Below, piece by piece: positions 4,905 to 24,520 of a stretch of 64,000 bases of DNA. Origin of the DNA: Phycisphaerales bacterium (GTDB taxonomy: Bacteria > Planctomycetota > Phycisphaerae > SM23-33); assembly GCA_018644725.1 (NCBI GenBank), contig JABGPZ010000060.1, positions 1,622-65,621 of the forward strand. Direction: 5' to 3'. The first letter of the stretch is position 1. Every line of letters begins with the position of its first letter. Under the pieces are notes generated by a model. It did not search any database. It saw only the letters and a program-made list of their open reading frames with translations, and was not told the DNA's origin. The translations under genes and the position numbers were made by a program.

Positions 4905-4932
4905 TTGACATGTCTTGACGCGGCGTTATAAT
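4905..4932 (+). promoter_or_regulatory. Consensus sigma70 promoter for the pilC-like gene
   Basis: TTGACA (4905-4910), 16-nt spacer, TATAAT (4927-4932). Confidence 0.75.
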
Positions 4933-5023
4933 TGAGTATCAGAAAACATGATGGGGGACGTTCGGGGGCGGTGTCGCCAGACGGTGTCCATTGGCCCGTG
5001 AATGTTCCATCAAGGAGCGGTTT

Positions 5024-6250: not shown

Positions 6251-6265
6251 CCCAGGAGACAGATC

Positions 6266-6760
6266 ATGAAACACACCAAACAAAAATCCGGGTTTACGCT
6301 GGTGGAAGTGATGGTTGCAACGGTGTTGCTGGCCACGGTGCTTTTGCCGTTGCTGCAGATCTATCCGAATATGTTGGTCATGATTGAAAAAAATCGAACG
6401 ATGACCAAGGCGACCTATCTCGCCAACGAGATCAAAGAATGGAGCGGCTACCTCAAAGCTCGCCAGCGCCACCTCTATGCGTCCGGGGCATATAAATCGA
6501 TTTGGGATCTCCATGGGGAGGTGTTTTCCCCGCCCGTGTCCGCGCCGGATATGAGTAATCCGACTTCGCCGACGGTCCTTTCCGATCATACTGGTTGGTC
6601 GCAGACGGTGACGCTGTCGCGCCGAACCGAGGGCAACCCGGCCGTGGTGGATTCACTGGGCACCTCCAAACTGGTTGAGCTCAAATGTGTCGTGAAATAC
6701 GAGGGCCAGACAATTCACGAGTTGGTTTGGCTGGAAAAAGAAGAAGCGATCATTCCCTAG
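6266..6760 (+). CDS. Prepilin-type N-methylation domain protein (minor pilin/pseudopilin)
   Basis: Basic leader followed by G|FTLVEVMVA with Glu5 and a hydrophobic helix. RBS AGGAG. Confidence 0.9.
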   Translation: MKHTKQKSGFTLVEVMVATVLLATVLLPLLQIYPNMLVMIEKNRTMTKATYLANEIKEWSGYLKARQRHLYASGAYKSIWDLHGEVFSPPVSAPDMSNPTSPTVLSDHTGWSQTVTLSRRTEGNPAVVDSLGTSKLVELKCVVKYEGQTIHELVWLEKEEAIIP

Positions 6761-6827
6761 CGAGCTCGGCGGGAAGATTCTGATTTTCGTGGTTCCGTTT
6801 GAACACCGTTCATGATACGCTTTGGGT

Positions 6828-9223: not shown

Positions 9224-9940
9224 ATGTTTGGATGGTTCAAAAAGAAGGAGGTCAAGTCGGATTTTTCAAAAGAAACCCCTTCTAAGCCAAAGCGAATTCC
9301 CATGAAAAGGATGACTGTTCAGGCAATTACCGACGCTTTTCCTGATTTTGTCCATATTCCTCTGGGGAGGCCGGGATATTGGTTTCGCCGTGATGCTCAA
9401 CCTTTCTTGTATTCCTTCCTCGTCATACAGGCCTCGCAAAAAGGGGTATGTTGCGAAGTTGATGTTGCGGTGTCGTGGGAGGAAATGTGGGATAAAGGGT
9501 ATGGCATTAGAGAGGGGCTTAGTTGTGGAACTGGCTTGGCAAATCTCCGTGAAGACTCTTCATCAATATTGATGGAAGACGAACTGTATAAGTTCGATCC
9601 CAATGTAGATTCATTTCAAAAATGCCTGCAAGCCATAGTTGATGAAATTCGCCAATTCGCTCTACCATTCTTTTCAAATCGTGAGGAGCGCCTGCGATCT
9701 GATCCATTGACCAAATTTGGTATGGACTGGATTCAGGCAAATATCGACGACATCCCGGAGGATTTTGAGAAACATTGGTTTAGCAACCCTGGCAACCCTC
9801 CAAAAATAGAGGCGCTTGAGAAACTCAAAAGTGCCATTCGTCTGGAGGCCACGCGAATCAAGGCAGACAAGGAATATCGCCAAGGGAGTACAGTCCTTGC
9901 TATTCATTTGTTGCGATTCGCCTCGACTTGCCTCAAATAG
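9224..9940 (+). CDS. Hypothetical low-GC orphan protein (238 aa)
   Basis: ATG 9224 follows purine-rich GAAAGGGA. Visibly more AT-rich than its flanks. No recognised motif. Confidence 0.7.
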   Translation: MFGWFKKKEVKSDFSKETPSKPKRIPMKRMTVQAITDAFPDFVHIPLGRPGYWFRRDAQPFLYSFLVIQASQKGVCCEVDVAVSWEEMWDKGYGIREGLSCGTGLANLREDSSSILMEDELYKFDPNVDSFQKCLQAIVDEIRQFALPFFSNREERLRSDPLTKFGMDWIQANIDDIPEDFEKHWFSNPGNPPKIEALEKLKSAIRLEATRIKADKEYRQGSTVLAIHLLRFASTCLK

Positions 9941-9951: not shown

Positions 9952-10317
9952 TTAGTCTTCCGGAGGCTTGGAATTAATCCTCTTCTCCCAGTCGAATTTG
10001 TGGAGGGTCCAGCCGTCGTATTTGCTGAGGTAGAACCAGCCGGCGGGGACGAGGGCGTTGCGCGATGTGTCGTAGACGGCGGCTTTGAGGAACGGGCCGA
10101 TCGTGTTGGTGATCAGGATCGGCGCATCAGGATGCGGCGTGATCGTCGGGCGGAACATCCCGCAGCCGGCGACCAGCGCCAGCAGAAGAACTGGTAGCAC
10201 CAGAGGCAAGATTCGCGTCGTGATTTGTCGGCGCGCTTGCTTCCGTCGTTGCGCTGGAGTTTCTTGCCTGCGACGCTGTCGTCCAAATCTCTTGATCGAG
10301 CGTAGCATTCGTTTCAT
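9952..10317 (-). CDS. Lipoprotein, putative o-spanin (Rz1-like)
   Basis: Basic N-region, hydrophobic stretch and lipobox LVAG|C, then a Pro-rich mature part. Starts inside the upstream ORF in another frame, with RBS AAAGG. Confidence 0.6.
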   Translation of the reverse strand: MKRMLRSIKRFGRQRRRQETPAQRRKQARRQITTRILPLVLPVLLLALVAGCGMFRPTITPHPDAPILITNTIGPFLKAAVYDTSRNALVPAGWFYLSKYDGWTLHKFDWEKRINSKPPED

Positions 10318-10447
10318 GGTCGTTGCCTTTCTGCTGGACGGTATGATTGCGGCGGATCTCCCGGCCGAGCGCGGGAATGAGTTTGGCGGCGATGGCTGCG
10401 AGAACCGTCCCGAGAAATGCCGCGAGGGATTTCAAATATGAAGTCAT
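10127..10447 (-). CDS. Small N-terminally anchored membrane protein, putative i-spanin (Rz-like)
   Basis: MTSYLKSLAAFLGTVLAAIAAKLIPAL TM segment plus a polar tail. Its 3' half overlaps the lipoprotein gene. Confidence 0.5.
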   Translation of the reverse strand: MTSYLKSLAAFLGTVLAAIAAKLIPALGREIRRNHTVQQKGNDHETNATLDQEIWTTASQARNSSATTEASAPTNHDANLASGATSSSAGAGRRLRDVPPDDHAAS

Positions 10448-10497
10448 GGCGTAGAGTCCTGTTTGTAGATCACGCGAAAAATTGGGGACAGGAAATC

Positions 10498-10692
10498 TTA
10501 TTTCTCGTCGCGGCCTTGTGTGAGGTCGAGGCCGAAGAGGTTGCCGATGGTTTTCAGCCAGGCCGAAACGGTGTCGAGCGCGGAGTCGTCGGCCGGGGTG
10601 GGCGTGAGAGCGACCACGCCGCGCGCGGCGATGTAGAGTGTGCCGACGATGGCGAAGACGTCTTTGTAGTTGGTTTGAATCCAGTCGATCAT
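10498..10692 (-). CDS. 64-aa membrane protein, holin-like
   Basis: MIDWIQTNYKDVFAIVGTLYIAARGVVALTPTPADD... with RBS AAAGGA. TM plus TPTPxDD resembles small phage lysis-cassette membrane proteins. Confidence 0.6.
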   Translation of the reverse strand: MIDWIQTNYKDVFAIVGTLYIAARGVVALTPTPADDSALDTVSAWLKTIGNLFGLDLTQGRDEK

Positions 10693-10706
10693 GGGGCGGT
10701 CCTTTC

Positions 10707-10988
10707 TCAGTGGCCGGGGGTGAGCCGGCCGTGGTGAAGTTCTTCGAGCAGGTGGCGCAGGATGCGCGACTGCTGGTTTTGATTGGCGGTGAATCGTGTG
10801 ATCGCGGCGGTGTTGCGCGCGATGGCATCGGCGAGCGTGCGCAGGCGTTGCTCGTCGCGGAGGATGCGCTGGAGGGCGGCGGTGAGCTGGGTTTCGCGTC
10901 GACGGGTAAGCATCCGTTCGAGCAGCCACAGCAGCCCGATCAGCCCGGCCGGGCCAAACGTAGCGAGGTTGGAAATCAGTGTACTCAT
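10707..10988 (-). CDS. 93-aa single-TM plus coiled-coil protein, holin-like (BhlA/UviB-type architecture)
   Basis: LATFGPAGLIGLLWLL TM followed by an amphipathic helix. Start overlaps the upstream stop. Confidence 0.6.
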   Translation of the reverse strand: MSTLISNLATFGPAGLIGLLWLLERMLTRRRETQLTAALQRILRDEQRLRTLADAIARNTAAITRFTANQNQQSRILRHLLEELHHGRLTPGH

Positions 10989-11953
10989 TCTGCGGGTGCC
11001 TCGATGATGTCGGTGAGTTCATAGTAAACCGTCAGCTGCAAATTCAGTGAAACCTTGCTCGAGTGCGTCCCCGATGGGACGAACAAAAGGTTGAATTGTT
11101 CCCCGTCGTCGGCGACGCGTTGCAGTGCCGAAATCAGCGCGGCGTTGGAAAGCGGTGTCAGCTGCATCGACGCGCACGTCACTTGCCCAAGCAGCGTCGC
11201 GCCCGTACCCAGCCCGCCCGTCCAGCTCGTTGACGCATCCAGGTTGTTCCACGTCGGATAGGTCCCGTCATAGGGCACCTCGGACGGGATGTGGTAGACA
11301 TCAACTACGCAGCTGTTATAGGCGAAAATTTCCAAGATCGAGTTTGGCAATATTGTCACGCCCGGCGTAATCCCCTTGGGGTCCTGGCCATAGCGGAGGA
11401 TGAAATATCCCAGTGCGCGCCTCTCCCCGTCCACCGAATTGTTGTAGACGATCATGCCCGAAAAGCAGAGGTCTGGCGAGGCGTCGGATAGCGTTGCGAA
11501 GTTGGAGACCCCCGCGATGTGCCGCACGCGATAGAGGTGTTCGAGCGCAAGGCGCAACTCGTTCATGTCTTCCGCGTCGATCCAATCTCCTTCGGCCGGC
11601 GCGCGCTTCCAGTCGTATCCCGTCGATCCGATTTGTTGGAGCAGGCCGGTCTCGTCGGGGTTCGAGGTGCTGTGGACGACGAGCGGTTTGTTCTCGTCTG
11701 CTCCCGCCAGCGGCCACACCCAGCGTTGCTGACCATAGGCCTGGCGCGGTGCAAGCAGTGTTTCGATGTCGTCGCGCAGGTCGTTGGGCGGGTCAGACGA
11801 AATAGGTCCACTCGGTGTCGGGACGGGTTCGGGCTCGGTGAAATAGATCGTGCGTCGGCGGTTGAGTTCGCTGCAGATCTCGGTGAGGTCTTCTCCGCGG
11901 GCGTGGTGCGAGATGTCAAGACGGCCGGTTTCGTTTTGTTGGAGATAGCTCAT
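10985..11953 (-). CDS. Putative tail-tip/receptor-binding protein (322 aa)
   Basis: Last gene of the structural block. Two helical 'EL' segments (EICSELNRR, DMNELRLALE) and a beta-rich C-terminus with TWNN...SWT, reminiscent of DNRLRE/CBM-like modules. Confidence 0.5.
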   Translation of the reverse strand: MSYLQQNETGRLDISHHARGEDLTEICSELNRRRTIYFTEPEPVPTPSGPISSDPPNDLRDDIETLLAPRQAYGQQRWVWPLAGADENKPLVVHSTSNPDETGLLQQIGSTGYDWKRAPAEGDWIDAEDMNELRLALEHLYRVRHIAGVSNFATLSDASPDLCFSGMIVYNNSVDGERRALGYFILRYGQDPKGITPGVTILPNSILEIFAYNSCVVDVYHIPSEVPYDGTYPTWNNLDASTSWTGGLGTGATLLGQVTCASMQLTPLSNAALISALQRVADDGEQFNLLFVPSGTHSSKVSLNLQLTVYYELTDIIEAPAE

Positions 11954-12492
11954 GTGTCTACCCGGTATTTGGCGTAGACGGGATGATCGAATGCCCAGCA
12001 GGTCTCAGAGGTCGAACTGGTCGACGCGTCGAGGGCTTCGGCGAGAACGATTTCGTCGTCGTCGAGTGCGCCGCCATCGCCGAGGTTGCGTTCGGCAAGA
12101 TTGATCGCGATGATTTCATCCGCTTCGGTGTCGTCGCTGAAGGTGCCCGCTGGGGTGACGCACTGTGGCTGAAGGGTGTATTCTGCGTCATAGCGGTGGG
12201 AGACGACTCGCGCGGCCACGGCGGTTTTCGGCGCCGAGACAGAAATGAACCATCGGCCTTCGAGGTCGATTGCGATGGCGTCGAGGTCGGCTTGGAGTTG
12301 GCCGCCGGCGGTATCGGCCTCGGCGAGATTGTAGACCTCCATTGTGTCGTCCGATTCGGTGAGGTCTTCGTTGGCATCGAGTTCGAGTTGCTTGGCGGTG
12401 TAGCGATTGTCGGCGTCGTGTGCCGTAATCCGGACCAGTCGGGCTCGGCCGGCGGCGGCCGCCTGGAGAAGATCGTGCGGTGTGGGGGACAT
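11950..12492 (-). CDS. Virion protein with two internal repeats (putative spike/OB-fold-like)
   Basis: Two ~60-aa repeats with shared pattern R(I/V)...Y-T...NLAE...GG.L. Directly follows the hub-like gene. Confidence 0.5.
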   Translation of the reverse strand: MSPTPHDLLQAAAAGRARLVRITAHDADNRYTAKQLELDANEDLTESDDTMEVYNLAEADTAGGQLQADLDAIAIDLEGRWFISVSAPKTAVAARVVSHRYDAEYTLQPQCVTPAGTFSDDTEADEIIAINLAERNLGDGGALDDDEIVLAEALDASTSSTSETCWAFDHPVYAKYRVDT

Positions 12493-12494
12493 GG

Positions 12495-14165
12495 TCAGCC
12501 TTGGAGTTCGAGGATGGTTTGCTGGTTGACGAAGTCGTGGTGCGCGCGGACCACGGCCGGGGCGCGGTTGGCTCGGCAGGACAAGCTGAGTCCTCGGCCG
12601 CCGATGCGGGGGACCAGGTCTCCTGTGCGAAAGGCCGGGTCGAGGGTCGCCAGCGCGAGAGTGGCGCGTGAGGGTCGCGTTGTGTGTGCGGCCTCGGCGA
12701 TGGCGAGCTGGCGGAGTCTCGGTGTGTCGTCGCGAACGATGGCGGGGTCGTGGTGTTTGGACGAGTCAAGGATTTCGTCGTAGTGCGCGTTGCGTTTGTG
12801 CTGGAGGATCACGTCTGGCGCATTGCGGTCCCCTTCGAGGTGGACCGAGAGCACGGCGTCGGAATCGATGGCGGCGGTGATGCGCAGCTCGGCCGTGCCC
12901 GATGCGGCGGCTTGGAAGTAGTCACCGGGAAGTTCGTCGTCGTCGAGGCGAATTGCACATCGTTCGCGACTGGCGACGACGCTGCCGGGGTAGGGCGTCC
13001 ACTCGTCTGTGGATTCCGCGCGATATTCCACGAGGAGCTTCGGACGGCTTCCATCGTCGGGGACGAAGAGCGGCGGGTGGAATTGGCGCATGCGCGAAAG
13101 GGTGAAATCGTCGTGAACCGTCGAGCAGTCGAACGCGGGAAGGGATTTGTCCGCGCCATCTTCGTTGAGGATCCAATAGCGCAGCAGGTCGCGCCGGGCC
13201 TCCCACTGTTCGCCGCGGCTTCGAACGGTCTGGGCGTAGGTGAGTTGCGAGTCGTCTTCCCAGGCGGCCGAAAGTGTGAAGGTCGATTCGTAGCGGCGCG
13301 GTGCGCCGAGGGCGTAGACGGAGGGTTGGGCCGGGCGCGCGGAGACCGTCACTGCCGCGCGGGCGAGATTGGTTTGCGAGGGGTCGAAGGTCTCGCCGGT
13401 TGGCTGAAGCTCGACGCGGCAGTATCGCCCGTCGAGGCCGGGGCGATAGAATCGCAATGTCATCCCTTCGCCCGCGATGGACAGCGATGCTTGCGCGGCG
13501 AGGCTCTCGATGGCTTGGGAAAGCGTCTTGCCGGTGAGCGTGGTTGGCGCGAGTTCGATGTCGCCCGCAAGGGACAGCAATTCGCCCCGGGACGGGGTTC
13601 CCAGGCTGGCGGCTTCGTCGCGAGCGAAGAGATAATTCAGCGCTTCGCCGACGGACCACGGGCGGGAGTCGTCGGACGAGTCGAACAGGCAGCACGCGTG
13701 GCGCAGGGCGTTCGGTTCGGTGGAGCATTGCGTTTCGTCGGTGGTGTTGAACGCCAGCGACGCGTAGCGCTGATGGAGGATGCGGCCGTCTGCGGCGAGG
13801 TGATGGCGGCCGAGGAGCGTGGAGGTCAGCGCGGTGGTGATGATCGGGGCGAGGATGGCGATGGCGGTCTCGCCGTCTTCGTCGAGGCGAAGGGAATGTT
13901 CGTCGACGATGGTTTCGAATGTAGCGGCATTCCCCATCGAGCAGACCAGTTGGACGTGTGAGCCGATGGGCGGCAGGAATCGCGTAAGGTCTCCCCAGAG
14001 CCCGCGCGGTGCGACGGCTAGCTCCCCGCGGCCAAAGGTGGGCGAGCCCAGGGCGGTCCACTCCAGCGCGACGAGGTCGTAGCGACGTTGAGAGTTGACG
14101 TAGACGCGCGGGACGAGGGGCATGGCGAGCGAGGACGAGCTGGCAAACGCGGGGAGGAGGGTCAT
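12495..14165 (-). CDS. Putative baseplate hub/Tal-like protein (556 aa)
   Basis: Real start ATG 14165 (ATGA overlap). Size, position and pattern (PPIGSHVQL, GKTLSQAIESLA...LRFYRPG, DPAFRTGDLV...VVRAHHDF..QQTILEL) fit T4 gp27/Mu gpP-like hubs. Confidence 0.55.
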   Translation of the reverse strand: MTLLPAFASSSSLAMPLVPRVYVNSQRRYDLVALEWTALGSPTFGRGELAVAPRGLWGDLTRFLPPIGSHVQLVCSMGNAATFETIVDEHSLRLDEDGETAIAILAPIITTALTSTLLGRHHLAADGRILHQRYASLAFNTTDETQCSTEPNALRHACCLFDSSDDSRPWSVGEALNYLFARDEAASLGTPSRGELLSLAGDIELAPTTLTGKTLSQAIESLAAQASLSIAGEGMTLRFYRPGLDGRYCRVELQPTGETFDPSQTNLARAAVTVSARPAQPSVYALGAPRRYESTFTLSAAWEDDSQLTYAQTVRSRGEQWEARRDLLRYWILNEDGADKSLPAFDCSTVHDDFTLSRMRQFHPPLFVPDDGSRPKLLVEYRAESTDEWTPYPGSVVASRERCAIRLDDDELPGDYFQAAASGTAELRITAAIDSDAVLSVHLEGDRNAPDVILQHKRNAHYDEILDSSKHHDPAIVRDDTPRLRQLAIAEAAHTTRPSRATLALATLDPAFRTGDLVPRIGGRGLSLSCRANRAPAVVRAHHDFVNQQTILELQG

Positions 14166-14785
14166 GATATGGCCTCGGGGAGAAGGGTGGGTGGCAAGGG
14201 CGTGCGGTCGGCGGCGGCGAGAGAATGGACCGTCAATTCCCCCGCGCTGTCCGAGCGGACAGCCCGAGCGGCGAGGGTGGTCATGCCCGCGAGGTCCAGC
14301 GGAATGCTGTAGTCGCCCGCGGCAGTCCAGGGGACAATCGCGGCGGGGCTGCCTGTGTCGATCGCACCGTTGGCGGCGAAGAGTTCGATCTGCTCGGGAG
14401 GCAGTTGGCCGTCGAGACACGTCGCGTGAAAATGGACCTGCGAGGGAGTGTCCAGTTCGGCGGTGAGTTCTTCGATGCGCGGCAGGCGGATGATCCAGTC
14501 GACGGCCGAGAGTTCGACGAGGGTTTCGACGTGGATTGTGCCGTCCTCGATCAACTCGGGCGAGACGCGGTTGGCGCGGATGCGATAGCTCGCCCCCAGC
14601 GCCAGCGGGAGGGACACGGTCGTTTCGTCGTCGGCGACGGTGGCCACGGGCAACAACGGTTCGCCGATGTGTCCCGCGCGGATGCGGATGTATCCGCCGG
14701 TCCCGATCCCCACGCGCAGGCCGCCGGTGGCGATGGCGGTGAGGGCGGGCGCATCGAGCAGGCCGTTGGGAAAGCGCAGCCGCAT
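14162..14785 (-). CDS. Hypothetical virion protein, beta-sandwich/FN3-like (207 aa)
   Basis: ATG 14785 lies just after the upstream stop. Beta-rich segments (SYRIRANRVS, TLAARAVRSD..GE). Confidence 0.55.
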   Translation of the reverse strand: MRLRFPNGLLDAPALTAIATGGLRVGIGTGGYIRIRAGHIGEPLLPVATVADDETTVSLPLALGASYRIRANRVSPELIEDGTIHVETLVELSAVDWIIRLPRIEELTAELDTPSQVHFHATCLDGQLPPEQIELFAANGAIDTGSPAAIVPWTAAGDYSIPLDLAGMTTLAARAVRSDSAGELTVHSLAAADRTPLPPTLLPEAIS

Positions 14786-14787
14786 GA

Positions 14788-15651
14788 TTACGCTCCCGGG
14801 GTTTCGGCGGCGGCGACGTCTTGGCGCAGGGCATCGTCGGTGACGCTTTGGGTGGTCACGGCCGCGTCGAGTTCGTTGTAGACCGTCAGCTCGGCGCTTT
14901 GGGTGGTTTCGGTTTGCCCCGTCCGCACGAAGGCGAGCTTGCTGGCGAAGCGGTGGAACAGCCAGACGAGTTGTTCGCGGAAGCTTGCGGGCTTGGCGGT
15001 GAGGGTCGTGGAGATCGAGTCCAGGCCGTCGGCTGCGAGCTTGGCCGCAGTGACCGGCGCATCGAGGTTGTCCAGCGTTGCAGCACGGGTTGCGGAATAC
15101 CCCTGGGCATCGAGCGCGGTTTGCAGGTCGGCGACCGTCGCGGGCGTGCGGTCGAACCATCGCACGGTATAGCTGTTGTCCGTCGCGGCGATGTTGGTGA
15201 GGTCGACGCGGACGCTGTCGGCAGGGCCGAGCGCGATCGGCCGCGTGAGCAAACGATAGTCACTCGTCCCGGCCGGAAGGGTCACGATTTGGCTGAGCGT
15301 GGGGGTGGTGTCGGCGTCGAGATAGAGGTCCACAGTCCAGTCGCCAGCGGAAAATTCGCCGAAGAGTTCGATCTGGATTTCTCCCGCAGCCGAGGCGAAG
15401 GGAGTGTAGCTGTCGAGGGTATCGCCGGAGGAGAGGTCCATGTTCTCGGCAGTATGGGTTCGCAGAAGTTGCACGTTCAGGTCCTCCATGGCGGCGGGGA
15501 AATCGTAGGCCGCGTCGGTGGTGATGGGGGGAAGCTCGGCGAGAAGCGCGGGCAACAGTGCGCCGTGGGTCTCGGTCGAAAGCGGGGTCGGGCTGACGAG
15601 ATGAAGCGCGTCGGCGAGGGTCAATTGGTCAATGTCGAGGGTGAATGTCAT
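14788..15651 (-). CDS. Hypothetical acidic virion protein (287 aa), possible fibre/appendage
   Basis: RBS AGGAG before ATG 15651. Thr/Asp/Ala-rich and inside the structural operon. Confidence 0.6.
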   Translation of the reverse strand: MTFTLDIDQLTLADALHLVSPTPLSTETHGALLPALLAELPPITTDAAYDFPAAMEDLNVQLLRTHTAENMDLSSGDTLDSYTPFASAAGEIQIELFGEFSAGDWTVDLYLDADTTPTLSQIVTLPAGTSDYRLLTRPIALGPADSVRVDLTNIAATDNSYTVRWFDRTPATVADLQTALDAQGYSATRAATLDNLDAPVTAAKLAADGLDSISTTLTAKPASFREQLVWLFHRFASKLAFVRTGQTETTQSAELTVYNELDAAVTTQSVTDDALRQDVAAAETPGA

Positions 15652-15662
15652 GGCGGGTTCTC

Positions 15663-16121
15663 CTAGACTGCGTCGGGCAGTGCGCGGAAGAGACACGCGC
15701 CGCGGCAGTCGACGATGTCTTCGAGATCGTAGCTACCCGAGGTGACGGTGATCGTGGCCAGCGGGAGATGCGCAGCGGTGGGGAAGCCATAGGTCTCGAC
15801 CGTCAGTTCGCCCGCGTCGTCGAGATAGATCGAGTTGACTGCGTTGTCGGTGAGGGCCTGGGTTTGGCTGCCGGCATAGAGAACGACGGCCCCGGCGGAG
15901 CTGGTGAATCGACCGGCGCGGACTCCAAAGGTTGCGCTGCCATCCTGGAAGACGCGGAAGTCGCCCGCTCGCCGCGCCACGGTAAGAAGCTGGGCGATCA
16001 TGCGGTAGAAGCTGGTGTAGTATGGCGATTCATAGATCGCGACAAACGGCACGCCGGTGTCGGCGTCGGTGGTGCCCGAGAGGGCGTTGAGCGAATCATC
16101 GCTGGGAAGCAGTTCAGACAT
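15663..16121 (-). CDS. Putative baseplate upper/fibre-attachment protein (152 aa)
   Basis: RBS GGAGG. C-terminal LPLATITV...IVDCR resembles the LPLA.v.v....I.D.R motif of BppU-like tail proteins. Confidence 0.55.
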   Translation of the reverse strand: MSELLPSDDSLNALSGTTDADTGVPFVAIYESPYYTSFYRMIAQLLTVARRAGDFRVFQDGSATFGVRAGRFTSSAGAVVLYAGSQTQALTDNAVNSIYLDDAGELTVETYGFPTAAHLPLATITVTSGSYDLEDIVDCRGACLFRALPDAV

Positions 16122-16812
16122 GGGAAACCTCCAGGGTCAGGTGCTGAGTGGCAGGGTCATAGGCCGTCGGGGCAATCGCCGCAAGGGACGCGGGGGCAAC
16201 GCGGGCGGCGAGTGTGGAATCAATGGGCTCGGACAGTGAATCGCCATTGCGCGTTTGGAGCCGAATCCGCAGCAGGCCGCTACGGGGTGCGCACAGGCGA
16301 AGGGAGATCTCTTCGGCGTCGAAGCCGAATGCTCCCGCGCCGAAGGCTCCGCGTCCAAAGCCCGGGGCGAGGTCGCCGTCGATACCGAATCCGCCGCGGC
16401 CCAATTGGCCCTGGCCAAAGCCCCAGTGCAGATGGGTCTCGTCCCAGATCGTGGCGGAGTCGGCCAGGCGATAGTCCCCACCGAGGCCGTCGTCGCAGAG
16501 AAGCTCGACGCGTTCGCCGGGCAGGTGGCAGGTGCGGCGCATTACGCGATGGCGATGGTGCCAGTCGGGCGGGGGCAGGGATTCGGCGCGGTGGCGATCA
16601 GCCCAGCTGCAGGCGCGGACGCTGGCGCTGGTGGGTGCGCTGGTGGCGCGAAACAGGAAGGTGCGCTGGGCGGGTGTGTTGGTGACGTCGGCGATCTCGC
16701 CATCGAGATAGAGCTGGTGGTACGCTTCGTCGGCGCTGGACTCGAACGTCAGGGCCCACTGGCCCGGCTGGGCGGCGGGACGAACAGAGACAATGGTTGC
16801 CTCGGCGGTCAT
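16114..16812 (-). CDS. Hypothetical virion protein with a GFG-repeat segment (232 aa)
   Basis: ATG 16812 overlaps the upstream TGA. Contains WGFGQGQLGRGGFGIDGDLAPGFGRGAFGAGAFGFD. Confidence 0.6.
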   Translation of the reverse strand: MTAEATIVSVRPAAQPGQWALTFESSADEAYHQLYLDGEIADVTNTPAQRTFLFRATSAPTSASVRACSWADRHRAESLPPPDWHHRHRVMRRTCHLPGERVELLCDDGLGGDYRLADSATIWDETHLHWGFGQGQLGRGGFGIDGDLAPGFGRGAFGAGAFGFDAEEISLRLCAPRSGLLRIRLQTRNGDSLSEPIDSTLAARVAPASLAAIAPTAYDPATQHLTLEVSHV

Positions 16813-17582
16813 GATGCCAGTTCCCGATATTCGAGGGTGTAGCTGCAATTGCAGCCGCTGGCGGTGAGGCGGATTTCGCCGGGCGCGAAACTCTCAAGAA
16901 GCAGATTGGCGTAGACGCGCGTGTCGTCGGTGAGTTGATGAAGTTGGTGGGTTTGGCAGGCGATGATGGCCTGGATGCGGCTTTCGAGACTGGCGCGAGT
17001 GGCCCCGGCGAGAGTGCCGCGCTGGGTGATGGTGCGACTGCGACGGCCGAGGGGCATGACCATCTCACCATCGAGGCCGGGGAATCCGCGGCGGAGGGTT
17101 TTGTGGACCCAGCTGGAAATCTCCAGTCGCGCCGGGCCGGACGAGAACAGCGCATTGCCATCGAGCAGCAGCTCACATGCGTCGGCCGAATCGTCGAAGT
17201 GGCAGGCTACATCCAGAGTTGCGCGCGGGCCATCGAGGCGGATCGCACGGACGGCGGTGGCGTCGCCGGCGGGGAGGTCTTCGCAGAGGCCTTCGCGGGT
17301 GGGGTCGTCCAGCAGCGTTTCGCTGACGAGCTCGGCCAGGTCCATCGCGCGGGCGCGTGCGGCGAGTTTGTTGTCGGCGCTGGTACGGATTTCAACGCTT
17401 AGCTCGAGCTGTTTTTGTCCGCGGCAGTGTTTCGTTGAGACGTCGTTGACGGCCTCGACGATGACGCAGGCGTTGGGCGTGTCGCCGTCGTTGGCTTCGC
17501 GCCCGGACGAGACCCACGCCAGCTCATCCATGGCCCGGAGAGTTTCGACGATGTGATCGAGAATGGTCGCTGCGTGTTGCAT
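16809..17582 (-). CDS. Putative tail-terminator-like plus distal-tail/tube-initiator-like fusion (257 aa)
   Basis: RBS GGAGG before ATG 17582. The N-half ends in LLDDPTREGL (terminator-like). The C-half has FPGLDG...LGRRSRTITQRGTL...YTLEYRE (Dit/P2 gpU-like). Confidence 0.5.
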   Translation of the reverse strand: MQHAATILDHIVETLRAMDELAWVSSGREANDGDTPNACVIVEAVNDVSTKHCRGQKQLELSVEIRTSADNKLAARARAMDLAELVSETLLDDPTREGLCEDLPAGDATAVRAIRLDGPRATLDVACHFDDSADACELLLDGNALFSSGPARLEISSWVHKTLRRGFPGLDGEMVMPLGRRSRTITQRGTLAGATRASLESRIQAIIACQTHQLHQLTDDTRVYANLLLESFAPGEIRLTASGCNCSYTLEYRELAS

Positions 17583-17584
17583 GA

Positions 17585-18229
17585 TTACCTCCGGCGAAGT
17601 TGGACGTTGGCCAGCGAACGTGACGTGTCGCGTTGGGCGTCGGCGTCGGTGTCGGTGACGAGGGTGAGTTGGGTCCGAAGGCGCCGCGCTTCGGCGCGAT
17701 AGTGTTCGGCCTTGATCCAGTTCAGGTCGTCCTGGGCGGCTTTTTGACAGCGGCCAAGGAAGATCGCTGCCAGCGCACGAAAGGCGCATAGCCGCCGGAG
17801 TTGATCGCTGGGGGAAAAGTCGTCGGCGTCGAAATCGACTTCACTTTGGGCGCGAAGCTCTTCGCCGAGAGCGGCGGAGGCTTCGGTACTGTGCGCGGCA
17901 AAGGTGCGCACGCGCCAGGAAAGCCCGGTTGCGTCGGGCGGGGCGACGGGGCCGTCGGTGCTGGACGTGCGCAACAGGGAAACGCTTAGGGCGGTGGGGG
18001 AATCGACGGACAGAATTTCGCAGCAGGTGCCCTCGGCGGGGATGGTTGCGCTGGTCGTGAGGACCATGCCCGGGAGAATGCTGGCGGCGAAGCTGGCCGA
18101 GGCACTGGTGAACGCGCCTGCGGCAAGCGCGCCGTCGTCGCCGGCGGCAAATTGCTGGCAGGCAGAGCCCTGGAGGAACACGAGAGGTTCAAGGGCCAAA
18201 AGATCGCGGTCGGTGCAGAACAAAGTCAT
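17585..18229 (-). CDS. Putative head-tail adaptor/head completion protein (214 aa)
   Basis: Immediately after the capsid gene, with RBS GAGG. FCTDRDL N-terminus and a helical C-terminus (QLRRLCAFRALAAIF...KAEHYRAEA) ending in a beta-strand. Confidence 0.6.
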   Translation of the reverse strand: MTLFCTDRDLLALEPLVFLQGSACQQFAAGDDGALAAGAFTSASASFAASILPGMVLTTSATIPAEGTCCEILSVDSPTALSVSLLRTSSTDGPVAPPDATGLSWRVRTFAAHSTEASAALGEELRAQSEVDFDADDFSPSDQLRRLCAFRALAAIFLGRCQKAAQDDLNWIKAEHYRAEARRLRTQLTLVTDTDADAQRDTSRSLANVQLRRR

Positions 18230-18287
18230 GGGAAACCTCGGGGGAAAGAGTCGAGGGGGAAGAATCGATGCGCGGAAAATCACCGGC

Positions 18288-18315
18288 CGGCGCGACCCGC
18301 GAACGGGCCGCGCCG
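18288..18315 (-). terminator. Stable UUCG-loop hairpin just after the major capsid gene
   Basis: Minus strand CGGCGCGGCCCG-TTCG-CGGGTCGCGCCG, with only a distant, weak U-tract. Confidence 0.6.
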
Positions 18316-18331
18316 ACACACAGTACAACTC

Positions 18332-19486
18332 TTAGGCATTCAAGCCGGTGATCATGCCGTGGGCAAGCTCGTTGCGGAATTCGAGGGAATATTCCCCGAT
18401 CAGCTCGCCCGCTTCATAGTCGCCCGTGGACGCGAGCGGTTTGTAGTGGAAGCTGCGCCCAACGAGCGGCAGAACGTCAACGCGGCTGGAATCCAGCAGC
18501 ACGACCGTGTCGGTGGGCACGTTGCGCGAGAGCAGCACACGGCAGACGCCGAAGTCGCTTTCGTAGATGCTCACCATGTCGCGGTAGGTTTCGTCCTGGG
18601 TGGTGTAGCCGCGCGAGGCCGTGATGAAGTTGTTGATGCGGCGCTTCTGGGCACCGTTGACGACGATGGTGTCGATGCGGCTGGACGCGTTTTCCCACAC
18701 CAATCGCAGTGCGAGATTCAGCTGGGCCTCGGTGAGGGCCGCGTCGGAGGGGAAGCTGCTCGCCCCAGGCACAAACGCGTTGGTCGAGATCGAGGGAATG
18801 ATGCCCTTCATCGTGCGGCGCACGCTGGACGAGCCTTCGGGGTTGGCGGCCGGGGACGTGCCGTTGAGGACGGTGTTCTCCAGGTCGCGCAGCAATTCGC
18901 GCAGACGTTCCTGCTTCTGATAGTCCAGCTCGTCGGCCACGGCGAGCTTGCGCACGGCGAGGTCGCTGCCGGAAACGCGCAGGGCCGAGGTGAAGATTTG
19001 GGTCCAGTTGCCGCGCCGTTGGCGGTTGGTGAACCGTGCAGCCGGAGCGTCGTCCCCTTCGAGTGCGGCGTTGCCGAGAATGTGCAGCGTGTCGGTGTCG
19101 GCCAGCTCTTGGGGGGTCGTGCTGCCATAGCCGCGCTGGATCGTCAGCGTGTTGCTCGACACGGCCGTGATGAACATCAGCTCTTTGGAGCCGGCCGCCT
19201 GGACTTGGTCGCCGACGCGGAAGCGCTCGCCGTTGGCAACGGTGATCGACGTGGTATCTTTGGATGCGTCATCGAGGCTGTCGTGGTCGATGACATCTTT
19301 GTTGGGCAGAAGGGTGTCTTCGAGCCACTCGTGATAGGTGCTGGTGGCTTCGCGGGGCGCGTCGCCGAGATGGTCGAGCAGGGGCGTCTCGTAGGGGCTG
19401 ACGATGCTGATGATGTCAGAGACATCTTCGGCGAGGTCTTGGAGCGATGCTCCGCTGGAATACGTTGCTTTGCCTGTAAAACTCAT
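18332..19486 (-). CDS. Major capsid protein, SU10/DUF5309-like HK97 fold (384 aa)
   Basis: EDVSDII..VSPYETPLL, HEWLEDTL, ALEGDDA, NWTQIF...VSGS, ELDYQ...ELLRDLE, R.MKGI, YESDFG, GELIGEYSLE..NELAHG.ITGL. RBS AAAGGA. Confidence 0.88.
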   Translation of the reverse strand: MSFTGKATYSSGASLQDLAEDVSDIISIVSPYETPLLDHLGDAPREATSTYHEWLEDTLLPNKDVIDHDSLDDASKDTTSITVANGERFRVGDQVQAAGSKELMFITAVSSNTLTIQRGYGSTTPQELADTDTLHILGNAALEGDDAPAARFTNRQRRGNWTQIFTSALRVSGSDLAVRKLAVADELDYQKQERLRELLRDLENTVLNGTSPAANPEGSSSVRRTMKGIIPSISTNAFVPGASSFPSDAALTEAQLNLALRLVWENASSRIDTIVVNGAQKRRINNFITASRGYTTQDETYRDMVSIYESDFGVCRVLLSRNVPTDTVVLLDSSRVDVLPLVGRSFHYKPLASTGDYEAGELIGEYSLEFRNELAHGMITGLNA

Positions 19487-19571
19487 GGCGGATCCTTTCG
19501 GGAAATGAAGCAGAATACGTTGTGTCCGCCTGACGGTCAGGCGAGAAATGAAAACGTGGGTGAGAAAACGG

Positions 19572-20021
19572 TTACTTCAGAGATCGTCGCAGGCGCAGGT
19601 AGGCCGTGAGGTCGCGACGGTTGCCGCTTTGGGCGGCGCGACGGGCGGTGTCGTCGAGGCGAACCTGGTCAGAGGCGACGGGGTTGGCAGCCGGGGCGCT
19701 CATTGGCGGCAGGGGTGCAGCCAGCGGCGGCGCGGGGGCGGGCTTGAGGAAGGGTTTGTCGTCGAGCAATGCGCCGAGTGCGTCGCGGGTGGCTTGGGCG
19801 TCGAGCGGGGCCGAGCAGTCCATGCGCGCCCGGAGCAGTGTTTCGCACGTCTCGGGGTCGATGGGTTTGGCCTCGCGCAGGGCCGTGTCGAGCAGATGTT
19901 GGTTGCTCTGTTCGAGAAGTTGCTGAGCGAGTTGGTCGCGCTGGGAGGTCATATCGTCGAGGTCGGTTTGGACGGTTTCGAGTGTGGCCTCGGGCGGGGG
20001 AGTGGCGTTGGGATCGGTCAT
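19572..20021 (-). CDS. Putative capsid scaffolding protein (149 aa)
   Basis: Lies between portal and capsid. Acidic coiled-coil, Pro-rich linker and basic C-terminal helix (DLTAYLRLRRSLK). Confidence 0.7.
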   Translation of the reverse strand: MTDPNATPPPEATLETVQTDLDDMTSQRDQLAQQLLEQSNQHLLDTALREAKPIDPETCETLLRARMDCSAPLDAQATRDALGALLDDKPFLKPAPAPPLAAPLPPMSAPAANPVASDQVRLDDTARRAAQSGNRRDLTAYLRLRRSLK

Positions 20022-21490
20022 TCGGCAGAGTCCTCCACGCTGGCGCGGTCATAGCCCAATTCGGCGAGGATGCGGTCCTGGCTGATGCCGAGTTGCTGCT
20101 TGAGGCGGGCGTTTTCGAGTTGATGGGTTTCGTCGTTGGGGAGCGGGTCGGGGAAGAGGACATCGATTTTTCGCTCGGCGGGCGTGGTGGCGAAGAGGTT
20201 ACTTCGGTCGAGGAAGTCCAGCGCGAGTTCCATCAATGCCCCCAGGCCGGTCGCAAAGGTCAGCCGCTTGCGGGCGGTGCGGCTGAGTAGGCCGCTGAGC
20301 ATCACACGCAGGGCGGTTGCGCTGGAGAGGTTGCCGATTTGGCCGCGCAGAATGCCCGCAGCGAGGGGCGTGACGCCCGAGAGCTTGTCGAGGCCCTGGC
20401 GAATTTGATCGATGTGCAGGTCTTCGGAAGGGCTGCCGTCGTCAGCGCCAAACTCTTCGATGCTGGCGTTGAGGTTGCCGGTGGCCCACATTTGGCCCGG
20501 GCCGACAGGGCGTTCGAGGAAGTCGTCGATGCCCTTGCCGAGATACATCTTGAACGATTGATACGTCACGCGGTGGGCGCGGTCGCACAGGCGTGTGTTG
20601 AGCTCGTCCTGCAGCGGGATCATCGGCTCGACGTCGCTGAAGCCGGCATAACTGCCGGGCGCGGCGATGTTCTGGATGTGGACGATGGGCAGGCGCCCCA
20701 GGGCGTTGGGGCCTTGGGCAACGAGGCGGCGGTTTTCGTAGCGCTGCCACCAGGAGGGCGAAAGGATCTCGACGATCTCGGTGGGCTTGGGCGACGAGGG
20801 TGTGCGGTTGAGCAGTCGGCGGATCGCGCCGGATTTGGTCGGCTCGGTACTCGAGCGGAAGTAGCGCTGAACCCAGTAGCGAGTCTGGCGGTAGTTGTCC
20901 GATTCGAGGATCGGAATCACACGCGGCGCTTCGATGGGTTCCAGGCGCAGGTTTCCTGCGGCGGCGATGGCGGTTTCGAGCGGGTCGTCGCTGGGGGGGA
21001 TGGATTCTGCGAAGTTGGCGGGGACGCGCAGGGCGACATCGACAAATCCGTAGACACTCGCGAAGAGGGCCATTTCTTCGAGGAGCAATTCCGAGCCGTT
21101 GGCGGCCAGGAGTGCGCCGAGGATTGCTTCGATGGCTTCGGCGCGAGCGGGGTCGGTGGCGCGACTTCGAAGGGTGACACCGCGGCCGAAGAGATAGTCG
21201 ACCATAGTGTTCACGCGCCATGCGATGTCGTTTTCGATGACGACTTCTTTGCGGCCTGCGTTGGGGCCCGCGCCGGGTTCGCCCGTGATGCGCGGGGGAA
21301 GGCCTTCTTCCTGCGCAAGGCGATAGGCTCGGCCCTGTTCGCCGCTGGGGGCGGGGGTCATGGGGTTTCGGTAGTAGTTCCACAGCCGTCGGTAGAGCGG
21401 TTCCTGGGCGGGCGAAAGCTGATCGATCAGCCAACGGACATGCTCGTCGTGAAGTGTGGAATCCTGGAAGGGTGCAAGTTCAAATGTCAT
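20018..21490 (-). CDS. Phage portal protein, SPP1 gp6-like (490 aa)
   Basis: LWNYY, ENDIAWRVNTMVDYLFG, NALGRLPIVHIQN...GFSDVEPMIPLQDELN, GNLSSATALR, LGISQDRILAELGY. RBS GAGGAG. Confidence 0.9.
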   Translation of the reverse strand: MTFELAPFQDSTLHDEHVRWLIDQLSPAQEPLYRRLWNYYRNPMTPAPSGEQGRAYRLAQEEGLPPRITGEPGAGPNAGRKEVVIENDIAWRVNTMVDYLFGRGVTLRSRATDPARAEAIEAILGALLAANGSELLLEEMALFASVYGFVDVALRVPANFAESIPPSDDPLETAIAAAGNLRLEPIEAPRVIPILESDNYRQTRYWVQRYFRSSTEPTKSGAIRRLLNRTPSSPKPTEIVEILSPSWWQRYENRRLVAQGPNALGRLPIVHIQNIAAPGSYAGFSDVEPMIPLQDELNTRLCDRAHRVTYQSFKMYLGKGIDDFLERPVGPGQMWATGNLNASIEEFGADDGSPSEDLHIDQIRQGLDKLSGVTPLAAGILRGQIGNLSSATALRVMLSGLLSRTARKRLTFATGLGALMELALDFLDRSNLFATTPAERKIDVLFPDPLPNDETHQLENARLKQQLGISQDRILAELGYDRASVEDSAE

Positions 21491-21698
21491 AGTGGGGTCT
21501 CCTCACTCTTGGAGGAATGTCGCAATGCTATGCGCAAAAAGTGTGTCCTCTTTTTTTCGAGGTTCGTGGGAGGTGCATGAATAGGGAGTGGAAATTTTCG
21601 GACGGTTTTTTGCTCCGCGACAGGCTACGCAGAAATTCTGCGCGAGGGGCATCGGCTTTTCCGTTTCAATCCCTCCCGCGCCGGAGTATGATGGTGCC

Positions 21699-22289
21699 AT
21701 GACGAAATTGATCAGCATCATGGGGCCCATTGGCGTGGGCAAGACGACTCTCGCAGAGCACCTCGCCGAAGAGCTGGGCGCGGAGTTGGTCCTCGAAGAT
21801 TTTGCGGGCAATCCCTATTTGGCCGACAGTTGCAGGGGGCGCAATGATTTGATCTTGCCGTCGCAGGTCTATTTTTTGATGACGCGCGCTCGGCAGTTGG
21901 CCCGGGAACACTGGGACTCGCGCGAGGGCCTGGCGGTGAGCGATTATGCGTTTTGTCAGGATGAGTTGTATGCCCGGCTGAAGCTCGTGCCGCAGGAGCT
22001 GGCGATCTATCGAGCGCTGCTGGAACCGACGATGGGGTTGGTGACGCGGCCTCGGGTGCTGATTCATCTCGACGCGCCGCTGGAGGTCCTCTGCGACCGG
22101 ATCGCCGGACGCGGGCGGGAGTTTGAATCGTGGTACACCGAAGAATTTCTCGCCGCGCACCGTCAGGCGCACTGGGACTATCAGCCGCCGGCGGGGGTGA
22201 AATTGTTGCGGGTGAACACGGCCGAAAGCGATCTGCGCGAGGACTCGACGCGCGAAAAACTGGGCCGGATGATCCGCGCGGTGCTTTGA
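21699..22289 (+). CDS. Deoxynucleoside kinase (dAK/dGK family)
   Basis: P-loop GPIGVGKTTL, NPYL, QVYFL..R, VSDY, RIAGRGREFE. Confidence 0.9.
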   Translation: MTKLISIMGPIGVGKTTLAEHLAEELGAELVLEDFAGNPYLADSCRGRNDLILPSQVYFLMTRARQLAREHWDSREGLAVSDYAFCQDELYARLKLVPQELAIYRALLEPTMGLVTRPRVLIHLDAPLEVLCDRIAGRGREFESWYTEEFLAAHRQAHWDYQPPAGVKLLRVNTAESDLREDSTREKLGRMIRAVL

Positions 22290-22339
22290 ATTGCCACAAT
22301 CCATTTGCTCCCCAGCCCGGAAGTTGCTAGCATGTGGCC

Positions 22340-24076: not shown

Positions 24077-24102
24077 GCACTGCGCGAATTCCGCATAGAC
24101 AC

Positions 24103-24132
24103 AAAAAAACCTTCCCAATGGAAGGTTTTTTT
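24103..24132. terminator. Bidirectional terminator between the lolC/E-like gene and tRNA-Asp
   Basis: A7-CCTTCC-caat-GGAAGG-T7. Confidence 0.85.
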
Positions 24133-24135
24133 AAA

Positions 24136-24209
24136 CGAGGCAGACGGGACTCGAACCCGCAACCTCCGGCGTGACAGGCCGGTGCGCTAACCAATTGTGC
24201 TACTGCCCC
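24136..24209 (-). tRNA. tRNA-Asp (GTC)
   Basis: GGGGCAGTAGCACAATTGGTTAGCGCACCGGCCT-GTC-ACGCCGGAGGTTGCGGGTTCGAGTCCCGTCTGCCTCG forms a cloverleaf with TTCGA T-loop and G73. CCA is not encoded. Confidence 0.96.
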
Positions 24210-24241
24210 GTTCGTTCGCCACGGTTGGCGACGGGAGGAGG

Positions 24242-24269
24242 ATTATACTTACCGCGCGAAAATTGTCAA
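24242..24269 (-). promoter_or_regulatory. Consensus sigma70 promoter of tRNA-Asp
   Basis: Minus strand TTGACA-N16-TATAAT. Confidence 0.8.
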
Positions 24270-24520
24270 CCGCTCTTTGCAAATTTTTGGGAATTTCTTT
24301 CTCAAACCCACAAATCGCGGCCCCGAAGGGCTTCATTCTGTGTTTTCTTTCAAAAACGAAAATAGTACTTGCAAAATTTTCTAAATTCGCTTCAATAGAT
24401 GGCTTCTTCCTGCGTTGATCACAGGAGAGCTAGAAACCAATGGACCCCTATCGCGCCTCGCTTTGGGAGCTACTTTATCGTGGCCTCGAGTCGAGCGCTT
24501 ACCCCAAGGAGATTGGATTG

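Follow-up and report, generated by a model that had tools for sequence, protein, structure and literature searches.

The window analysed here is a stretch of 64,000 nucleotides (G000:C82:1622-65621) from a metagenome-assembled genome (MAG) of a marine Phycisphaerales bacterium. This genome, called G000 in the following, comprises 2.54 Mb in 112 contigs, is 95% complete and has a GC content of 0.589. At positions 9952-21490 of the window, on the minus strand, lies a cluster of phage-type head, tail and putative release genes. As a set these genes look complete. Judged from its gene content and from the way its sequences have evolved, this cluster ranks as a strong candidate for a gene transfer agent (GTA) that is new and arose independently.

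Gene content and surroundings of the cluster

Sixteen co-oriented open reading frames (ORFs) pack the interval, with short gaps or overlaps between them, and third-position GC picks the identical frames. The 16 ORFs listed in an initial annotation of this DNA were thereby borne out. That annotation had also seen no obvious frameshifts, and none was found; the short g07 (152 residues) is a natural length variant, as 9 of 53 homologous ORFs have 144-161 residues. Family scans were done with Pfam and PHROGs and, around the cluster, were restricted to the immediate flanks. Fourteen of the 16 ORFs (all but g01 and g03) gave no match above threshold. Hence the portal and capsid labels of the initial annotation stand on family matches, whereas its scaffold, adaptor, holin-like and spanin-like labels derive from position or sequence features; its tail/baseplate block was substantiated for g10 only, whose AlphaFold model matches baseplate hubs and VgrG spikes. 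From the upstream region to the last gene the features are:

21491..21587, minus strand: upstream control region with the ribosome-binding site (RBS) GAGGAG and a TTGCGCA...TTGCGAC element
20018..21490, minus strand: g01, portal, 490 residues (PF05133 SPP1_portal, 6.4e-15; phrog_104, 2.2e-20)
19572..20021, minus strand: g02, scaffold-like by its position between portal and capsid, 149 residues; no family match
18332..19486, minus strand: g03, major capsid protein (MCP) of the SU10/DUF5309 type, 384 residues (PF17236 SU10_MCP, 1.7e-85; phrog_1328, 1e-76)
18286..18317, minus strand: GC-rich hairpin directly 3' of the capsid gene, 14 pairs (12 GC) with a T-rich tail
17585..18229, minus strand: g04, conserved head-proximal protein, 214 residues; candidate neck, adaptor or head-fibre protein
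16809..17582, minus strand: g05, structural protein, 257 residues; two separate ORFs in most relatives
16114..16812, minus strand: g06, glycine-rich structural protein, 232 residues; invariant glycines in the homologue alignment
15663..16121, minus strand: g07, putative anchor domain of a modular tail fibre or spike, 152 residues; 27-70% identical in relatives
14788..15651, minus strand: g08, 287 residues; gene specific to G000 in the variable slot between g07 and g10
14162..14785, minus strand: g09, variable tail gene, 207 residues; three weak matches only, at 29-34% identity
12495..14165, minus strand: g10, predicted fusion of central baseplate hub and spike (gp27/VgrG-like), 556 residues (AlphaFold and Foldseek)
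11950..12492, minus strand: g11, acidic conserved tail protein, 180 residues; 27-46% identical in relatives
10985..11953, minus strand: g12, 322 residues; 23-35% identical in relatives
10707..10988, minus strand: g13, membrane anchor and coiled coil, 93 residues; final conserved core gene (phrog_32121, 2.6e-4, below threshold)
10498..10692, minus strand: g14, small membrane protein, holin-like, 64 residues (phrog_9685, 6.6e-5, below threshold)
10127..10447, minus strand: g15, N-terminal membrane anchor, 106 residues; overlaps g16 in a different frame
9952..10317, minus strand: g16, lipoprotein with lipobox LVAGC, o-spanin-like, up to 121 residues

Synteny and tblastn comparisons covered 97 related loci; the relatives sampled were 41 genomes, 24 of them from the same family. 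Among the head genes, g01 is the sole SPP1-type portal match in G000, g02 keeps its position in relatives at 26-44% identity, and g03 is 56-76% identical across the class. The hairpin behind g03 could serve as an attenuator that holds capsid expression above tail expression. The g04 gene is present in 74 loci (coverage of at least 80%), including clusters that consist of head genes only; its AlphaFold model (pLDDT 86.3) has no fold match in the PDB, and viral tail-fibre proteins match it weakly (TM ~0.3). Homologues of g05 are ORFs of 132-143 residues in 16 of 20 cases and fused ORFs of 263-275 residues in the other four. Searches of PDB sequences with profiles of g10, g04 and g06 returned nothing useful; g06 had no match.

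The best characterised tail protein is g10. Its AlphaFold model, computed from a 17-homologue alignment (pLDDT 84.7), gave 47 Foldseek matches in the PDB at E <= 0.001. Spikes of contractile injection systems rank first (7b5h_AJ, 2.1e-11; 7aef_q, 1.9e-10), and further matches include the tail of Haloferax virus HFTV1 (9h4p), Mu gp44, T4 gp27 and VgrG1. By this model, g10 is a gp27/VgrG-like baseplate hub fused to a spike. In relatives g11 always follows directly after g10. The stretch between g07 and g10 is variable. ORFs homologous to g07 have 144-653 residues with a conserved N-terminal and a variable C-terminal part, and the anchor domain of ~150 residues occurs in relatives either alone or with 100-500 extra residues. 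No match to g08 was found by tblastn in the 97 related loci, and it is probably a receptor-binding part. The region homologous to g09 forms the end of a ~700-residue protein in several relatives. The ESM Atlas model of g12 is similar to beta-sandwich proteins of the CBM96 type (TM 0.46-0.54, feature score 0.85). Such Atlas matches lie below evidence level and serve as a lead only, but a glycan-binding receptor-binding protein is possible.

The last four genes encode small membrane proteins and, in g16, a lipoprotein; they are candidate lysis genes. g13 is 36-60% identical in relatives, occurs in head-only clusters too and may have a holin-like or spanin-like role. The frame overlap of g15 with g16 would fit an i-spanin-like g15 and an o-spanin-like function of g16. 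Another contig of G000 (C78, locus L167, 1-3075) has siphovirus-like tail genes, namely one for a tail tube (PF06199, 1.6e-6), an ORF resembling a chaperone and the first part of a tape-measure gene, and paralogues of g14 (69% identical), g15 (57% over 56 residues) and g16 (47%) sit between them. By its genes, this contig appears to be a fragment of a second phage or prophage in the G000 bin, and the g14-g16 cassette appears to move between elements.

The surroundings of the cluster are of a different kind: its immediate flanks hold non-phage-type genes. A deoxynucleoside kinase gene (21588-22289, plus strand; PF01712, 1.9e-14) begins 97 nt from the portal start, which agrees with the divergent host-type kinase of the initial annotation, and is followed by an FtsX permease gene. 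At the other end lie a convergent low-GC ORF of ~238 residues (~9225-9940, plus strand) and then a gene for a VWA protein. This ORF ends 12 nt from the g16 stop, has no family match and is preceded by a terminator-like hairpin after the VWA gene. The absence of an attachment site (att) repeat and of an integrase, noted at the outset, held up: no att-like flanking direct repeat was found around the cluster, and none of the seven tyrosine-integrase matches in G000 lies on the cluster's contig. The sole tRNA gene in the window, for tRNA-Asp (24135-24210, minus strand), is 2.6 kb away.

Assembly was examined with low-depth contigs from four independent marine metagenome runs. Such contigs match the window without differences and bridge both cluster junctions. 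This answers only in part whether the rest of a prophage was split off by the assembly, as the MAG is fragmented and contig C97, discussed below, has only 2.3 kb. A joint of 17273 to 23061 (side 20) consisted of high-depth contigs and was discarded as a chance match or another organism. At 23752-24385 the summed contig depth was 10-50x above that elsewhere in all four runs. This excess probably stems from tRNA genes of other organisms, because this interval holds the tRNA-Asp gene. Elsewhere in the window, positions 47573-54718 (plus strand) form one open frame of 2381 residues with strong third-position GC bias.

Upstream of the portal gene, relatives share the RBS GGTGAGGAG and, ~35-50 nt before the start codon, a TGCGCGCGCA-like palindrome. 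The exact TGCGCGCGCA palindrome is found twice upstream of the portal both in locus L018 (4081, 4194) and in locus L019 (15674, 15783), that is, as pairs ~110 nt apart in two genera. In the entire 2.54-Mb genome of G000 the palindrome occurs only 9 times. It was also sought near 12 terminase loci, where it would have hinted at co-regulation, but none was found. The palindrome may be an operator, and its conserved placement points to a regulatory role of the region 21491..21587.

A large terminase encoded at a second locus

A terminase gene was missing from the cluster according to the initial annotation, and none was found in the window. Pfam searches of G000 with PF03237, PF03354, PF04466 and PF17289 gave no match either. 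This was a failure of sensitivity, since a large terminase (TerL) is present. In G039, a genome from another family, a marginal Terminase_6N match is located 1.3 kb upstream of the portal gene, and the ORF C97:134-1621 (minus strand) of G000 is 44% identical (E 1.5e-122) to this portal-adjacent, terminase-like ORF. As a single sequence the C97 ORF stays below the Pfam cut-offs (Terminase_6N, 0.0061; Terminase_3C, 0.011). In an alignment of 17 homologues, however, G81/K83/T84 (Walker A), D169/E170 (Walker B) and D328, D382 and D474 (nuclease) are invariant, and the profile of these homologues matches solved large terminases (5oe8, 1.7e-11; T4 gp17, 4.4e-5; P22, 9.1e-5; SPP1, 2.2e-4). By these motifs and matches, C97:134-1621 qualifies as a divergent large terminase with a Walker A/B ATPase and an RNase-H-like nuclease. 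Between the two domains, four cysteines (C244, C250, C253 and C259 in G000 numbering) are kept in 17 of 17 terminases; they possibly form a zinc-binding insert. PF03237 matches, which occur in 9 of the 41 relatives, do not track the cluster.

Upstream of TerL lies a gene for an ABC-type ATPase fused to a GNAT-like domain, which in G000 is cut by the end of C97. The pair of ABC-ATPase/GNAT and TerL is conserved in relatives, and similar fusions in the ESM Atlas fall into clusters that are 48-87% viral. At the loci of the family the ABC-ATPase/GNAT gene directly adjoins the terminase gene or runs into it and leaves no space for the intervening ORF of 142-149 residues that is present in the sister element described below.

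In the 24 relatives from the family, MCP and TerL (at least 56% identity) occur together in 11, MCP alone in one, TerL alone in two and neither of them in ten; the lone genome with MCP only is 69% complete. In G000, and likewise in 10 relatives from the family, TerL and cluster are located on different contigs. In G014, G015, G034 and G038 these separate contigs are large, and in G039 the terminase is linked to the cluster. The initial annotation had put forward an unlinked terminase as one possibility. This found support in the orphan TerL on C97, since relatives from the family that have the cluster also have close orthologues of it.

A sister element with a different head was found in genomes without the SU10-type MCP (L193, G025:C4:1-19900; also L186 and L189-L191). 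It is one co-oriented block of ~20 kb with an ABC-ATPase/GNAT gene, a 142-residue ORF, a terminase of a separate clade, a 484-residue ORF where the portal would be, genes for a scaffold-like and a beta-helix protein, and an anchor resembling g07 (42% identical). Thus its packaging genes are contiguous with its structural genes. TerLs from genomes that have the MCP fall into a single clade, and the sister-element TerL is set apart from it (100/100); in identity the two groups overlap.

DNA packaging is plausible in view of the intact terminase motifs. The initial annotation had also considered a container for something other than DNA; the preserved catalytic motifs of the terminase speak against this. 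Neither next to the structural cluster nor next to the TerL locus were genes for replication, integration or a repressor found. As in GTAs, phage-type head, tail and putative release genes are thus present in the chromosome, with no genes for replication, integration or lysogeny control in the immediate flanks scanned. Since packaging and structural loci are separate and such genes accompany neither, the particle would be unable to propagate itself.

Distribution, inheritance and phage relatives

Four observations had been named at the outset that would speak against a host-maintained particle. One is the assembly evidence treated above. On the other three, namely a cluster absent or patchy in close relatives, closest homologues in complete temperate phages, and ratios of nonsynonymous to synonymous substitution (dN/dS) near 1, the data favour such a particle. 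As to the first of these three, the MCP is present in 20 of the 41 sampled relatives, mostly in single copy, with 67-74% identity in the same family and 56-63% in other families. A search with a profile built from 15 MCPs covered 201 genomes of the class Phycisphaerae that are at least 90% complete. It found the MCP in 117 of them, and most copies are single and intact. Some families are fully or nearly positive (f3, 12/12; f13, 11/11; f14, 20/21; f7, 26/30), and others are negative in this search (f4, 0/9; f18, 0/11; another, 0/8). When one genome per species was scanned, at least 586 confirmed relatives with the MCP were obtained, the best 80 of which are all Phycisphaerae or otherwise labelled Planctomycetota. 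At least one of them (L133) lacks a MAG label and may be a strain in culture. Hence the cluster is not confined to a few genomes and is fixed in many families.

The gene order portal, scaffold, MCP, g04, g05, g06, g07, variable genes, g10, g11, g12, g13 is kept. The family clade has 24 loci with sufficient upstream DNA for assessment; at 17 of them the housekeeping gene purB divergently adjoins the portal gene, and more genes are shared beyond it. About 10 of the 117 class genomes with the MCP have this gene broken into pieces, which in one of them lie ~7 kb apart. Examples are G053:C106 (25537-25710 and 32596-33573), G146:C41, G156:C6 and G006:C30 (L029). G006 retains tail genes and terminase despite its broken MCP. 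These cases suggest insertions or decay in some lineages.

Reduced versions of the cluster, with portal, scaffold, MCP, g04 and a small g13-like gene, were found at L026 (G038, 4269-8827), L027 (G036) and L028 (G034), and further at L106, L112, L125, L132 and L149. Downstream of them unrelated genes follow on the opposite strand. A profile of the g10 hub had no match anywhere in G034, G036 and G038, whose genomes are 97-99% complete. Such head-only versions in several families raise the idea of a satellite-like, helper-dependent element that makes capsids and relies on a co-resident phage for tails, small terminase or induction. In its favour are also that no small terminase or endolysin was recognised and that the other phage fragment in G000 shares g14-g16. 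But the integrase, replication and att features of satellites were not found, the chromosomal position is conserved across genera, the cluster in the window has its own tail hub and fibre genes, and fixation in whole families is unlike mobile satellites. Of the explanations considered here we regard this as the least probable, with very little weight.

Several lines of evidence suggest that the cluster diverges like a host gene. In pairwise comparisons the identities are 67-80% for MCP and 61-74% for purB, so the MCP diverges no faster than purB, and the distances of the two genes correlate (Spearman 0.74 over 36 pairs, which are not independent). G023 is the closest relative of G000 for purB (73%), MCP (74%) and TerL (70%). 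The congruence of purB, TerL, portal and MCP trees was tested with 12 taxa, and inner support was weak. The TerL and purB trees group G000 with G023 (support 95-98). Portal and MCP trees are poorly resolved; in the approximately unbiased (AU) test, grouping G000 with G023 in them was not rejected (p 0.245 and 0.44), which is no proof of it. Taken together, the trees are compatible with co-divergence of cluster and host but do not prove it.

Selection was assessed by the NG86 method in two pairs of lower GC content, with synonymous divergence (dS) of 0.2-1.2, for which the values are approximate; a high-GC pair (L014/L091) was dropped, as long antisense ORFs spoiled it. dN/dS was 0.06-0.19 in 15 of 15 cluster genes of pair 1 and 0.08-0.30 in 13 of 14 cluster genes of pair 2. 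Far from being near 1, these values indicate purifying selection. In pair 2, the only one with aligned flanks, dS of the cluster (0.50-1.20) matches that of the flanking genes (0.62-1.24). A fast gene occupies the tail-fibre slot, being 37% identical in a pair in which the remaining genes reach 67-91%. Vertical inheritance and purifying selection, as they characterise GTAs, are thus both indicated, with weakly resolved gene trees on the side of inheritance.

The composition of the cluster, which the initial annotation took to be host-like, has to be corrected: its GC content is 0.642, compared with 0.594 in the rest of the window and 0.589 in the genome. Across 28 loci, cluster GC tracks flank GC from 0.47 to 0.70 and exceeds it in 26 of them, by 2.7 points on average. 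A GC excess is also known for alphaproteobacterial GTAs, according to an excerpt of PMC7360931.

No complete temperate phage turned up among the closest homologues. The best MCP of an isolated phage is 33% identical to that of the cluster. In the MCP tree, a family clade of 31 rows and a second clade of 21 rows, which holds all rows labelled Phycisphaeraceae, were obtained, and the nearest other viral MCPs, 36-37% identical, are reached across a branch of ~3 substitutions per site.

These data bear on whether the clusters could be decaying remnants of widespread temperate phages that integrated repeatedly, often near purB. The dN/dS of 0.06-0.30 in all measurable genes and the equal dS of cluster and flanks argue against this, as do the single intact copy in most genomes and the fixed presence within families. 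The phage derivation of the genes and their GC excess over the flanks would fit such an origin, yet cluster GC follows the host from 0.47 to 0.70. Differing contexts in G000 and its nearest relatives, the interrupted MCP genes (e. g. in G006, G053 and G156) and the g14-g16 paralogues in another phage fragment would fit recurrent integration and decay. However, nothing marks an intact or recently inactivated prophage: there is no integrase match on the contig and no att repeat, the terminase is at another locus in most genomes, and isolated phages and other viruses are as distant in their MCPs as described above. Recurrent defective prophages therefore appear improbable, though marginally less so than a satellite, and the pattern of genes and substitutions indicates that the cluster is not a decaying prophage.

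Two IMG/VR contigs with direct terminal repeats, G041 (41 kb, GC 0.57) and G042 (62 kb, GC 0.43), carry a full-length SU10-type MCP (G041, 32992-34143, L030 and L063-L065; G042, 55349-56491, L031). Their MCPs are 61-70% identical to that of the cluster, up to 80% (G041) and 72% (G042) identical to host copies, and nested within host clades of the MCP tree. No other cluster gene was found on either contig. On G041 there are also a separate portal (phrog_156, 1.6e-93), a head protein (phrog_334, 2.9e-68) and a terminase of the phage itself; the additional MCP stands among early genes, between RecT/PD-(D/E)XK and methylase genes. This looks as if a phage had captured a capsid gene of the host element.

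MCP-only copies on phage contigs would also suit a phage counter-measure against a host system. They bring up the possibility that the cluster is domesticated and vertically inherited but serves a purpose other than transfer, namely as an anti-phage or abortive-infection device, as a particle that kills competitors by means of the VgrG-like spike and variable receptor-binding genes, or for DNA disposal. The hub-spike fold of g10 is common to contractile injection systems and the VgrG of type VI secretion systems, the tail-fibre slot is hypervariable, with g08 unmatched in 97 loci, and head-only clusters exist. On the other hand, DNA packaging is implied by a portal, a capsid and a terminase whose ATPase and nuclease motifs are intact, and Pfam and PHROGs scans of the cluster ORFs matched neither a sheath nor a tube family. 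A portal, capsid or terminase is not known from tailocins and injection systems; only the hub-spike fold is shared with them. No tie to known defence families was seen, though no PADLOC scan was made. We consider such a function rather unlikely, but it carries more weight than recurrent defective prophages and these in turn more than a helper-dependent satellite.

Interpretation and comparison with known systems

The interpretation that we favour, and consider probable, is that the cluster represents the structural and release half of a host-domesticated, phage-derived particle system which is inherited with the chromosome across Phycisphaerae and is probably GTA-like. A host-maintained particle, possibly a DNA-transfer agent, had been the initial proposal, and distribution, dN/dS, the absence of close phage homologues and the orphan TerL all support it.

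Such a system could work as follows. A host-controlled promoter upstream of the portal gene, suggested by the conserved palindrome and RBS, would drive a single 16-gene operon. Portal, scaffold-like protein and SU10-type capsid protein would assemble into procapsids, and these would be filled with DNA, presumably headfuls of host DNA, by the TerL encoded at C97:134-1621 behind the ABC-ATPase/GNAT gene. A compact tail with the VgrG-like hub-spike and variable receptor-binding proteins would then be added, the small membrane protein and lipoprotein genes would bring about release of the particles, and transfer of the DNA to other cells could follow.

A number of observations do not fit easily and weigh against this interpretation. 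The MCP was not matched in 84 of the 201 class genomes, a patchy distribution. At seven assessable family-clade loci, that of G000 included, the cluster is located away from purB, and the flanks differ from one of these loci to the next; either the cluster moved or the surrounding genome was rearranged. The free portal tree places G000 with G029 (support 80/90) instead of G023. The TerL contig C97 has only 2338 bp, in a MAG of 112 contigs. Genes for an endolysin, a small terminase, a tail tube and a tape measure were not recognised in the family and fold scans. Three near-complete genomes with head-only clusters and no hub are a poor fit to a tailed transfer particle. Finally, the occurrence of g14-g16 paralogues on the siphovirus-like contig C78 means that part of the cluster exchanges genes with phages.

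A more specific reading within the favoured one can be put forward tentatively. The system would be an ancient GTA of independent origin and the first in Planctomycetota, kept since the early radiation of Phycisphaerae as a split system with the structural operon at one place and the operon of ABC-ATPase/GNAT and terminase elsewhere. Some families would have reduced it to a head-only DNA-packaging module, and the capture of its capsid gene by phages would point to a conflict between the host particle system and phages.

If particles that carry DNA are made, a built-in route of gene exchange would exist in hundreds of Phycisphaerae species, from marine, sediment, groundwater and bioreactor samples. 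Full clusters with linked (G039) or unlinked terminase, head-only clusters and the sister element with a different head form a natural series for how a virus is dismantled and retained by its host. The ABC-ATPase/GNAT partner of the terminase and the phage-borne capsid copies are directly testable questions raised by this element.

To our knowledge, only few independently domesticated GTAs are known, none of them in Planctomycetota, and full-text literature searches on Planctomycetes, Planctomycetota and Phycisphaerae turned up no description of a GTA. The closest analogue is RcGTA of Rhodobacter capsulatus. Like RcGTA, the system studied here has a compact chromosomal head-tail cluster without replication and integration genes, appears to be passed on with the host across a large clade while purifying selection acts on it, has a GC content above the genomic background, and has its functions spread over more than one locus. 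Its building blocks are different. The capsid is of the SU10/DUF5309 type and the portal of the SPP1 type, whereas capsid and portal of RcGTA belong to other families, and homology is limited to general phage fold classes. The terminase, which lies inside the RcGTA cluster, is outside the cluster here. Neither a tape-measure nor a tube gene was recognised, the place where a small terminase would be expected is taken by an ABC-ATPase/GNAT gene, and the host phylum is Planctomycetota. With SPP1_portal and SU10_MCP as the only Pfam matches, neither head-tail homology nor a terminase in the cluster connects it to the RcGTA-like family.

BaGTA, VSH-1, Dd1, VTA and PBSX are other independent domestications of tailed phages. 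They package host DNA in particles that cannot propagate their own genes, and the system described here would be alike in the latter respect. It differs from them in ancestry and host phylum, and its packaging of host DNA is a prediction. An excerpt of PMC11841831 names VTA, Dd1 and BaGTA among the GTAs and describes GTAs as lacking replication genes and packaging by headfuls.

With Kuravirus SU10 and other podophages that have a DUF5309 capsid (e. g. Bruynoghevirus), the cluster shares the capsid family PF17236. Matches to MCPs of Pseudomonas phages of the Bruynoghevirus type are 27-28% identical, and MCP identity to isolated phages does not exceed 33%. Unlike these phages, the cluster lacks phage genes for replication, transcription and terminase. 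Its tail has a gp27/VgrG-like hub, whereas an adaptor, a nozzle and a tail needle are named for SU10 in an excerpt of PMC9509320.

Capsid-forming phage-inducible chromosomal islands (cf-PICI) and other phage satellites are similar in that they are chromosomal and have their own capsid, portal and packaging genes, and the head-only variants resemble them in gene content. Satellites are mobile and carry integrase, replication genes and att sites. In contrast, the cluster has no integrase match on its contig and no att repeat, and its position is conserved across genera. On the basis of these sequence comparisons, the Phycisphaerae cluster would thus be a GTA-like system of independent origin and different build, in a phylum new to such systems, and is not homologous to the RcGTA family.

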